DNA of 64,000 bases from Nannocystis pusilla (GTDB lineage Bacteria > Myxococcota_A > Polyangia > Nannocystales > Nannocystaceae): the NCBI RefSeq assembly GCF_049337375.1, contig NZ_JBMPIV010000015.1; one strand, 5' to 3'. Positions 38,440-38,830 of this stretch are shown here, one piece after another. The position numbers were made by a program, and so were the translations under genes. The notes under the pieces were generated by a model. That model did no database searches. It saw only the letters and a program-made list of their open reading frames with translations, and was not told the origin of the DNA. Within the stretch, counting starts at the first letter, position 1. Each line of letters begins with the position of its first letter.

Positions 38440-38830
38440 GAGATGTCTGAAAGGTCATGCCCTGGAGGTCATGTCTGAAAGGCCGGGACAGGCAGAGACG
38501 CGGGCTGGGGCGGGATTTCTCGGAGAAGACACGTCGGGGCAGGTACGATATGTCTTGAAGGACATGTCCATGCGGACATCGCGGGGGGCCGTGACCGCGA
38601 GGGCGAGGGCTGAAACGGTATGTCTGGAAGGACATGTGTTGAAGGGCACGTCGGGCGCCGCGGCATGGGAGAGCGAGGCCGCGTCGGGAGCCTTGATGGA
38701 CATGTCCTCGAGGCCATGTATGGAGCCCGGGGCAGGGGAGAGCGAGACGAAGACGGCGGTCTCGAAGGACATGTCTTTAAAGCCATGTCTTTAGATCGAC
38801 GGGGCGATGAGCGGCTCGGGGAGCCGGGAC
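38440..38830. repeat. Largest CATG-core hairpin cluster in the window (at least 8 stem-loops)
   Basis: GGTCATGCCctggaGGTCATGTC, GATATGTCttgaaGGACATGTCCATGCGGACATC, GGACATGTCCtcgaGGCCATGT, GGACATGTCtttaaaGCCATGTC and others, 3' of the HTTM-like gene. Confidence 0.75.

Follow-up and report, generated by a model that had tools for sequence, protein, structure and literature searches.

A genus-wide family of CATG-centred palindromic repeats in a 14-nt register, concentrated downstream of Nannocystis genes

A 64,000-nt stretch of Nannocystis pusilla DNA (contig NZ_JBMPIV010000015.1 of assembly GCF_049337375.1; the whole stretch is referred to here as the window) contains, between positions 38440 and 38830, an array of short palindromes centred on CATG, and similar clusters recur at the ends of many of its genes. 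An initial annotation, made from the sequence alone, proposed that these palindromes belong to a dispersed, sequence-specific family of hairpins and are not simply unrelated GC-rich terminators. The locus therefore raises the questions of whether such a family exists, which of its properties is conserved, and what maintains it. As we show here, the palindromes are copies of a short module, common to the genus, in which sequence and spacing are retained while individual copies change rapidly.

A palindromic module of 14 bp

In the window, which has a GC content of 73.3%, the core GACATGTC occurs at 27 sites compared with 0.82 expected, a number reached in 0 of 100 shuffles. The degenerate form GGRCATGYCC is found 13 times (0.41 expected), the paired half-sites TGTC-N6-GACA 36 times (0.53 expected) and the 16-mer ATGTC-N6-GACAT, when up to two mismatches are allowed, 103 times (9.3 expected); none of these observed values was equalled in any shuffle. 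Eight of the 16-mers lie in the focal interval, at 38443, 38457, 38550, 38564, 38620, 38702, 38757 and 38771, where approximately 0.06 would be expected. Outside the lattice, CATG occurs at about the frequency predicted from composition. A submotif reported to accompany the palindromes is also enriched, GAARAGACAGGT being present 8 times against 0.15 expected (about 50-fold) and GACAGGTC 15 times against 2.1 (7-fold), and both are interpreted as degenerate nodes with CAGG in place of CATG. The proposal of a dispersed, sequence-specific family, as opposed to a collection of unrelated terminators, is thus borne out: GACATGTC and GGRCATGYCC are far above the frequency expected from composition, and the motif, rather than being confined to this region, is genome-wide and genus-wide (see below). 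Scanning with the 16-mer (up to two mismatches) recovered every cluster that had been listed initially, and that list proved incomplete by five further clusters (marked in Table 1).

The module of the family is 14 bp in length and comprises a CATG-centred palindrome (RGGR-CATG-YCCY; RGGRCATGYCCY) followed by four variable AT-rich bases, the strict 14-base register being written as GGACATGTCC. The length of the unit follows from the fixed spacing of TGTC-N6-GACA, from the direct abutment of GACA on TGTC (27 cases) and from the distances of 14, 28 and 42 nt between CATG centres (30, 11 and 10 cases, respectively, when every CATG in the window was listed with its context). Indeed, when all spacings from 0 to 20 nt between TGTC and GACA were scanned, only N6 was populated (36 cases), besides N20, which is one unit further, and spacings of 4, 5, 7 and 8 nt were represented by 0–1 cases each. 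The separation of 3–8 nt described initially is therefore replaced by a fixed N6, and the stems of 8–10 bp are exceptional, the median uninterrupted stem being 4–5 bp. Consecutive units are separated by 14 nt (n=174), 28 nt (n=28) or 42 nt (n=10) and neighbours overlap through shared CATG half-sites. In-register runs contain 1–5 units; with at most one mismatch allowed per unit there were 311 single units and 116, 20 and 6 runs of two, three and four units, respectively.

Node composition was estimated free of selection bias by requiring CATG only at +14 and −14, and by removing the sites that had been used to fetch loci. Of such nodes, 74% retained an unaltered central CATG (91% per position), the flanks conformed to R-G-G-R and Y-C-C-Y at 50–70% per position, and the four spacer bases were AT-rich with a pyrimidine-then-purine tendency. 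Larger arrays are built by local tandem duplication, with repeats of 57–78 nt enclosing some of the units in the window (5296–5566, 38440–38860 and 52302–52554) and a repeat of ~150 nt in Nannocystis punicea. At the scale of single units, the identity of neighbouring spacers is raised (1.29 versus 1.07), indicating occasional unit duplication, and slightly more so than their complementarity (1.21 versus 1.08); this marginal rise in complementarity did not sustain the idea of longer, node-centred palindromes, which was rejected.

It could be argued that the conserved property of these elements is the hairpin, the term used for them in the initial annotation. The focal array (38430–38870) folds better than its own shuffles (z = −4.5), single clusters reach −18 to −28 kcal/mol with z as low as −5.3, and the units, with 55% GC against 72% in other intergenic 28-mers, have a mean folding energy of −9.3 compared with −7.2 kcal/mol, approximately 2 kcal/mol better (p = 2e-15). 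It should be emphasized, however, that the two inner-arm positions form Watson-Crick pairs in only 50% and 61% of units. After removal of ascertained sites, covariation across the spacer is weak, being significant for one pair (odds ratio 2.3, p = 0.017) but not for the next (odds ratio 1.5), and spacer pairs, outer pairs and mirror positions inside a node displayed none. An apparently strong covariation (odds ratio 4.4) was inflated, as the fetched tiles had been selected for T:A at those positions, and was withdrawn. The length of the loop is invariant while its sequence is free. Thus, it is the core sequence and the register that are conserved, and not the stability of the stem.

Distribution in genes and genomes

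Genes in the window were called from third-position GC content and corrected by the deposited gene calls of syntenic loci. With up to one mismatch, 48 of 57 units are located in the non-coding 15% of the window, covering ~10% of its intergenic DNA, and only 4 of the 27 exact GACATGTC cores are found in the coding 85%. Units with up to two mismatches reach a density of 16 per kb in convergent gaps, 7 per kb in co-directional gaps and 1.5 per kb in divergent gaps, the last figure reflecting three units in a single 1-kb gap. Over 778 kb of pooled sequence the corresponding values were 14.4, 4.2 and 1.6 per kb, and no units were present in the divergent gaps of six syntenic loci with deposited gene calls. 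Within co-directional gaps the units lie a median of 52 nt from the upstream stop codon and 182 nt from the next start, and of the seven convergent gaps in the window five contain units, the other two being shorter than 25 nt. The position at gene 3' ends and between convergent genes that had been noted initially is therefore a general feature of the family. The individual copies are presented in Table 1.

Table 1. Repeat units in the window, and isolated triple sites in other taxa ("new" denotes clusters missing from the initial list)
Feature	Position	Strand	Context
Two units (new)	876–925	no strand	70-nt gap 852–921
Two units	4666–4699	no strand	Convergent gap 4654–4768; among the few with a T-rich tail
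Array of 6 units, period 57–64 nt	5296–5576	no strand	Adjoins stop end of minus-strand gene 5593–6513
Nine units	10378–10716	no strand	From 11 nt past stop of VWA-domain gene 7653–10367
Single or double unit	11816–11834	no strand	Gap 11645–12024
Two degenerate units (new)	12983–13012	no strand	17 nt past stop at 12966
Four units	15286–15356	no strand	From 9 nt past stop at 15277
Six consecutive units	16835–16920	no strand	Filling 113-nt convergent gap 16816–16928
Three isolated units (18453, 18542, 18909)	18453–18924	no strand	1-kb gap upstream of class II aminoacyl-tRNA synthetase gene; sole divergent gap of the window with units
Units	24799–24859	no strand	Convergent gap 24792–24986
Two units	26450–26479	no strand	Adjoins stop end of minus-strand histidine-kinase gene 26528–28846; orthologous gap occupied in 4 other species
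Two units	29113–29142	no strand	Adjoins stop end of minus-strand Glu/Leu/Phe/Val-dehydrogenase gene 29164–30186
Two units	35037–35066	no strand	Convergent gap 34956–35247, downstream of radical-SAM gene; orthologous gap occupied in 5/5 syntenic Nannocystis loci
Focal array, 8–10 units in ~5 groups 60–80 nt apart	38443–38860	no strand	580-nt gap between HTTM-like gene (stop 38354) and KGGVGR-motif ParA-like ATPase gene (start 38936); array in all Nannocystis orthologues, with differing unit numbers and sequences
Units	45973–46238	no strand	Gap 45790–46164, extending into 3' end of gene 46165–47280; 2–10 units in the orthologous gap of other species
Intragenic array, seven CTGTCC-N4-GGACAG/T units (new)	52223–52571	+	Gene 50980–54258
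Cluster (new)	53601–53630		
Single unit	57676–57691	no strand	70 nt past stop at 57606
Two units (new)	59203–59232	+	Linker of Ser/Thr kinase-TPR gene 57818–60709
Three units	60739–60782	no strand	From 30 nt past stop at 60709
Units	61977–62034	no strand	Filling 100-nt convergent gap 61940–62039
Degenerate unit ATGACCGAAAAGACAG	63967–63982	no strand	At window edge
Isolated triple GACATGTC sites	L029 484; L036 1295; L086 6701		Roseovarius metagenome-assembled genome
Isolated triple GACATGTC sites	L062 2311; L115 5136		Sulfitobacter
Isolated triple GACATGTC site	L040 7613		Mycolicibacterium

No gene is annotated in the gap of the focal array in the orthologous loci with deposited gene calls. The 110 nt that precede the ParA-like gene (38826–38935; the gene product is an AAA ATPase) match the closest relative with 100% identity and can be recognized in all Nannocystis orthologues, while the adjacent upstream array is only 91% identical or unalignable; this segment is probably the promoter and 5' leader of the gene. 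The divergent gap in front of the aminoacyl-tRNA synthetase gene is unusually long and also contains, at 18590–18807, a 78-nt tandem repeat of 2.8 copies with 95% identity, which has no coding signal and displayed no convincing match to Rfam.

The minority of copies located inside genes are informative with respect to the level at which the repeat spreads. The seven units of the intragenic array, three of which are contained in a 78-nt (26-codon) tandem repeat, are all in the same frame and encode (A/P)-V-x-x-D-(R/M/T)-S; they fall in the disordered segment that links the kinase to the WD40 domains of a protein specified by one continuous open reading frame (ORF). In Nannocystis bainbridge a 21-nt coding repeat built on the same core encodes PVPADIS in approximately seven copies (locus L112, 2331–2502), and in Nannocystis sp. 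RBIL2 a 36-nt coding repeat encodes five copies of GMSRETASLPPA (locus L027, 4582–4726) in a protein with an N-terminal ECF-sigma-like region; the 21-nt and 36-nt repeats read the same palindrome in different frames. Exact cores in the coding DNA of the window number 4 compared with ~0.7 expected, about 6-fold above chance. These in-frame copies, which cannot be terminators since they are in coding linkers, demonstrate that origin or expansion of the motif takes place in DNA and that it persists wherever it is tolerated.

The extent of the family was explored by scanning one genome per species (185,579 species) for the triple pattern ATGTC-N6-GACATGTC-N6-GACAT. Among the matches listed, ~88 of 120 scan tiles were from Nannocystis, while the remainder were mostly singletons in unrelated taxa; by our own estimate about 10–17 chance matches would be expected. 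The Nannocystis tiles derived from N. bainbridge, N. punicea, N. radixulma, N. exedens, N. pusilla, strain RBIL2 and two metagenome-assembled genomes (MAGs). At distances of more than 750 nt from the fetching site, units were present at 0.2–0.7 per kb in seven other Nannocystis genomes, which, extrapolated to 11–13 Mb, corresponds to several thousand units per genome. The repeat family is therefore genus-wide, being common to all the Nannocystis species sampled. It is still present in a relative whose orthologue is 61% identical, and no units were found in the 7 kb examined of a relative in which the orthologue is 45% identical. A phage origin was rejected, as 2.9 million viral contigs yielded a single chance match (44% GC). 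Full-text literature searches returned no description of such a repeat in Nannocystis or other myxobacteria, and the full-text matches to GACATGTC were mostly p53 response elements and primers.

Two sets of matches outside Nannocystis deserve comment. A contig labelled as a Planctomycetia MAG (L088, 67% GC) contains at 986–1057 approximately six perfect tandem copies of GACATGTCGGGGTG, which has the core and the 14-nt period of the Nannocystis family; this represents either a mis-binned contig or an independent occurrence. In Roseovarius, Sulfitobacter and Mycolicibacterium, isolated triple GACATGTC sites with 14-bp spacing and AT-rich spacers are located upstream of genes and look like putative regulator operators. 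Their sequence resembles ATGT-N8-ACAT, the form of PadR operators; PadR-type operators were rejected, however, as no PadR gene was found beside the non-Nannocystis sites examined.

The genetic surroundings of the units are those of an ordinary chromosome, the genes of the window encoding kinases, an aminoacyl-tRNA synthetase, peptidases and dehydrogenases. In BLASTN comparisons with the fetched loci, 14902–20959 is 94.5–97% identical to N. pusilla Na p29 and 34611–42717 is 86–96% identical to N. exedens DSM 71. For the protein specified by 38936–40645, the closest homologue displays 95% identity and all named matches are from Nannocystis. An exact look-up of the protein of gene 48556–50043, in a collection that does not include the strain, gave no match. 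Several other features were observed. Near-identical sequence is shared by the initial ~80 kb and the final 7 kb of the N. exedens DSM 71 contig NZ_NETK01000001 (L008 and L020), as would be seen if the overlap had been left untrimmed in a circular assembly. The plus-strand gene 30929–33466 encodes an 845-aa protein that, from its matches to the major vault protein (MVP) shoulder domain (6e-30), Vault_3 and Band_7, is a predicted bacterial homologue of the eukaryotic protein, and the pair that it forms with the following radical-SAM gene (33663–34955, plus strand) is syntenic in 7/7 related loci fetched. The neighbouring plus-strand genes 10847–11644 and 12025–12966 match the ALK/LTK glycine-rich domain PF12810 (~1e-19), which is familiar mainly from animal receptor kinases.

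Orthologous gaps were compared between N. exedens, two N. pusilla strains, RBIL2, N. punicea, N. bainbridge, N. radixulma and the closest relative. Four gaps are occupied in all species: that separating the histidine-kinase gene from the dehydrogenase gene, that following the radical-SAM gene, that separating the HTTM-like gene from the ParA-like gene, and that flanked by the genes for 197-aa and 326-aa proteins. Occupancy is thus kept over 5–6 species, while the number, position and sequence of the units vary to the extent that arrays are unalignable beyond the closest relatives, and differ even between relatives in which the adjacent protein is 95% identical. Compared with N. pusilla, third codon positions have diverged by 2.7% and other non-coding DNA by 3.7%, in contrast to 11% for the arms of the units (8/73; p = 0.009 against a 4% benchmark) and 31% for the spacers (15/48; p = 3e-10 against the same benchmark), which contain no indels. 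Divergence is therefore 3–10 times faster in copies than at synonymous sites. Where relatives differ by indels, these are tandem duplications of 58–150 nt. The consensus is thus kept genus-wide although single copies are short-lived.

Maintenance of the units

The reading that we favour, and to which we assign an even chance of being correct, is that the units constitute a family resembling repetitive extragenic palindromes (REPs) and bacterial interspersed mosaic elements (BIMEs), recognized or propagated at the DNA level with a contribution from palindrome-driven slippage and template switching, effects on RNA being secondary. In this model the palindrome would be the target of a sequence-specific factor, either as duplex or as a hairpin extruded from the DNA, replication errors induced by the palindrome (slippage and template switching) would contribute to turnover, and units would persist where they are least harmful, downstream of genes. 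When transcribed, they would provide 3' untranslated regions (UTRs) with modest stem-loops, whose effect on termination or 3'-end protection would be secondary. No evidence of transposition was found, the indels between close relatives being local tandem duplications, and the genes of the window include no transposase.

Several observations weigh against this proposal. The Nannocystis unit, at 14 bp, is much shorter than a REP and is fully symmetric, and thus the unit has no orientation. Two large REP superfamilies are marked by GTAG and CGTC end tags (PMC3733652). In the outer flanks of the Nannocystis units, GTAG/CTAC is present in ~1% and CGTC/GACG in 5–6%, at or below the intergenic background. 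Neither a transposase nor a binding protein for the family was identified, and a clean pair of insertion and empty site was not found. REPs have as their cognate enzyme a REP-associated tyrosine transposase (RAYT), which is IS200/IS605-like and whose gene is flanked by the repeats; no RAYT-like ORF (H-x-H...Y-x-x-x-N-P) was detected in 1.14 Mb, a sample of ~1% of the genomes concerned and too small to be informative. The conserved occupancy of gaps could also stem from selection for a function in the host, as opposed to tolerance of the repeats. The evidence for rapid turnover comes from a small sample, 73 arm and 48 spacer bases, in which misaligned lattice units could inflate the apparent divergence, notably of spacers. 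Finally, the tiles other than the window were selected for a triple unit, and counts derived from them were corrected for ascertainment where possible.

It could be argued that the units are RNA 3'-end elements, stem-loops in the 3' UTR that terminate transcription without a U-tract, bidirectionally in convergent gaps, or that block 3'-to-5' exonucleases after Rho-dependent termination. Consistent with this view, units follow directly on stop codons, five of seven convergent gaps are occupied, the same gaps are filled across species, arrays fold better than their shuffles, and canonical terminators are scarce, a hairpin-plus-T-run scan of 20 kb yielding 6 hits compared with 3.7 expected. The units are, however, not classical intrinsic terminators, a candidate class that was rejected as the T-tract is absent, the GC content is 55% and the mean folding energy −9.3 kcal/mol; just three elements in the first 20 kb of the window pass the hairpin-plus-T-run scan. 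Flank composition displayed no T-run after the last unit or A-run before the first, and in co-directional gaps no position of the profile oriented by transcription departs from symmetry. Pairing on the sense strand of an RNA would be expected to leave G·U-type rather than A·C-type mismatches. The first sample contained a weak, non-significant excess of the former (58 versus 38, p = 0.052), which disappeared in six loci with deposited calls (15 versus 18); the combined figures, 73 versus 56 (p = 0.16), led to the rejection of RNA-level pairing. Since the profile is symmetric, T- and A-runs are missing and there is no significant G·U bias, neither strand is marked as functional. Stems are often broken, the gain in stability is only ~2 kcal/mol, and an AT-rich core in a 73% GC genome is the opposite of what selection for stability would produce, while a simple hairpin does not need a loop of fixed length and free sequence, and copies in coding linkers cannot terminate transcription. 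No Rfam 15 family matched at gathering score over the whole window, or at E ≤ 1 over 38300–38950. We regard a primary function in RNA as a live but less likely alternative.

The remaining alternatives are at the level of DNA. The units may form a duplex-DNA lattice bound cooperatively, with a period of 14 bp, by an abundant host protein where transcription units end; this view, and with it the candidates that it brings to mind (a nucleoid-associated protein, a gyrase or topoisomerase partner, a roadblock or insulator), is likewise live, with about the same probability as the RNA elements. The palindromic core, the rigid length of a free AT-rich spacer, the strand symmetry and the lack of a G·U bias together are an operator-like signature, the units are AT-rich islands in GC-rich DNA, occupancy is conserved across species, the tandem palindromic boxes bound by MetJ-type proteins are likewise in fixed register, and the isolated triple sites of unrelated taxa resemble operators. 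An arm divergence of 11% compared with 2.7% at synonymous sites is, however, unexpected under purifying selection, complementary covariation across the spacer is weak but significant while there is none within the palindrome, a centre distance of 14 bp is unusual for simple dimers, and neither a candidate protein nor, beside the non-Nannocystis sites, a PadR gene was found. A bolder version, which appears quite improbable, is that a dedicated Nannocystaceae protein polymerizes on the 14-bp CATG lattice at the 3' ends of transcription units, where it would be either a terminator of the roadblock type or an insulator, topological or transcriptional in nature. Fast turnover would then mean that sites are regenerated by palindrome-driven duplication, with selection acting on occupancy rather than sequence; we know of no description of a sequence-specified, genome-wide mark of gene ends in bacteria. 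It is very unlikely that the units are DNA uptake sequences, akin to the DNA uptake sequence (DUS) of Neisseria or the uptake signal sequence (USS) of Haemophilus, kept dense by biased uptake of self-DNA in natural transformation with inverted pairs at gene ends as a by-product. Such a role would accommodate the retention of one short core across the genus at about 0.2–0.9 per kb despite the turnover of copies, its AT-rich flanks and the above-chance number of coding copies, but uptake bias predicts neither the 14-nt register nor the N6 spacing, known uptake sequences are not palindromic, the exclusion from coding DNA (15% of cores in 85% of sequence) is far beyond that of USS and DUS, and competence of Nannocystis is not documented in the literature searched. 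Least probable is a footprint of restriction-modification or methylation at CATG, ACATGT or RCATGY. The core does coincide with the recognition sites of the NlaIII, PciI and NspI enzyme classes; restriction pressure, however, depletes palindromes, which here are ~30-fold enriched, CATG outside the lattice is near its expected frequency, and both register and 3'-end position would be left unexplained.

The interest of the family resides in its density, its rigid 14-nt lattice, the dynamics of its turnover and its entry into coding linkers. For annotation, units mark the ends of transcription units in genomes where canonical terminators are scarce, and for strain typing the arrays act like variable-number tandem repeats. 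Knowledge of the units is needed when Nannocystis gene clusters are moved, because the genus is a producer of natural products. For mutation biology the family is a natural system in which a palindrome is upheld at the level of the family amid fast-changing copies, and for protein evolution it exemplifies a route by which repeats enter coding sequence, in frame and as part of linkers. Should there be a dedicated binding protein, the units would constitute a new kind of genome-wide boundary signal.

Relation to known systems

Among the four analogies suggested in the initial annotation, that with REP and BIME elements fits best and that with DUS and USS fits poorly, and other comparisons can be added. 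Ribbon-helix-helix repressors bind tandem palindromic boxes in fixed register, an example being MetJ and its metboxes. Similar to the Nannocystis units, metboxes are palindromes of 8–10 bp arranged head to tail in exact register with 2–5 copies per site; they occupy a few promoter sites per genome, however, whereas the Nannocystis units number thousands and are excluded from promoter gaps. The TRIT motif of Mycobacterium tuberculosis, a sequence-conserved hairpin downstream of genes, is likewise a conserved palindrome without a U-tract, found past stop codons and in convergent gaps of a bacterium with high GC content, but it is longer, single and present in ~150 copies, in contrast to a 14-nt lattice with, by extrapolation, thousands of copies. 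With DUS and USS the Nannocystis family shares a genus-specific short core, a frequency of about one per kb or less, and frequent pairing at gene ends. These uptake sequences have a non-palindromic core distributed in both orientations over coding and non-coding DNA; in Nannocystis the core is self-complementary, the 14-nt register is rigid and coding DNA is almost free of copies (4 of 27 cores).

The copies inside genes invite a separate comparison. Rickettsia palindromic elements (RPEs) are 100–150 bp in length. Together with intragenic REPs, they resemble the coding copies of Nannocystis in being palindromic repeats in frame within tolerant regions of proteins, and RPEs carry the CGTC tag (PMC3733652). 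The Nannocystis coding copies differ in being cores of 14–16 bp in tandem repeats of 21, 36 or 78 nt that lie in low-complexity linkers.

The REP and BIME elements of Enterobacteria and Pseudomonas, including REPINs, remain the closest parallel. Like the Nannocystis units, they are short palindromes in hundreds to thousands of copies, extragenic, concentrated downstream of genes and in convergent gaps, present singly or in clusters with fixed internal spacing, variable among close relatives and occasionally intragenic. Enterobacterial REPs have GC-rich, stable stems, whereas the Nannocystis core is AT-rich, its hairpins are predicted to be weak, and its units share CATG half-sites without linker motifs. 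Published REPs are high-copy palindromes of 20–40 bp that lie between genes and in some cases within them, and they have been proposed to act in supercoiling, termination and mRNA stability (PMC3733652); copy number, position, clustering, variability and the occasional intragenic copy are all matched here (PMC3733652, PMC3337134). A defined head and tail orientation was not observed, the profile being symmetric. Because the tag and a defined orientation are both lacking, the Nannocystis family is termed REP/BIME-like rather than a REP member. Thus, at the level of class the description as a repetitive extragenic palindrome family is secure, and within that class the repeats apparently represent a REP/BIME-like variant that has not been described before.

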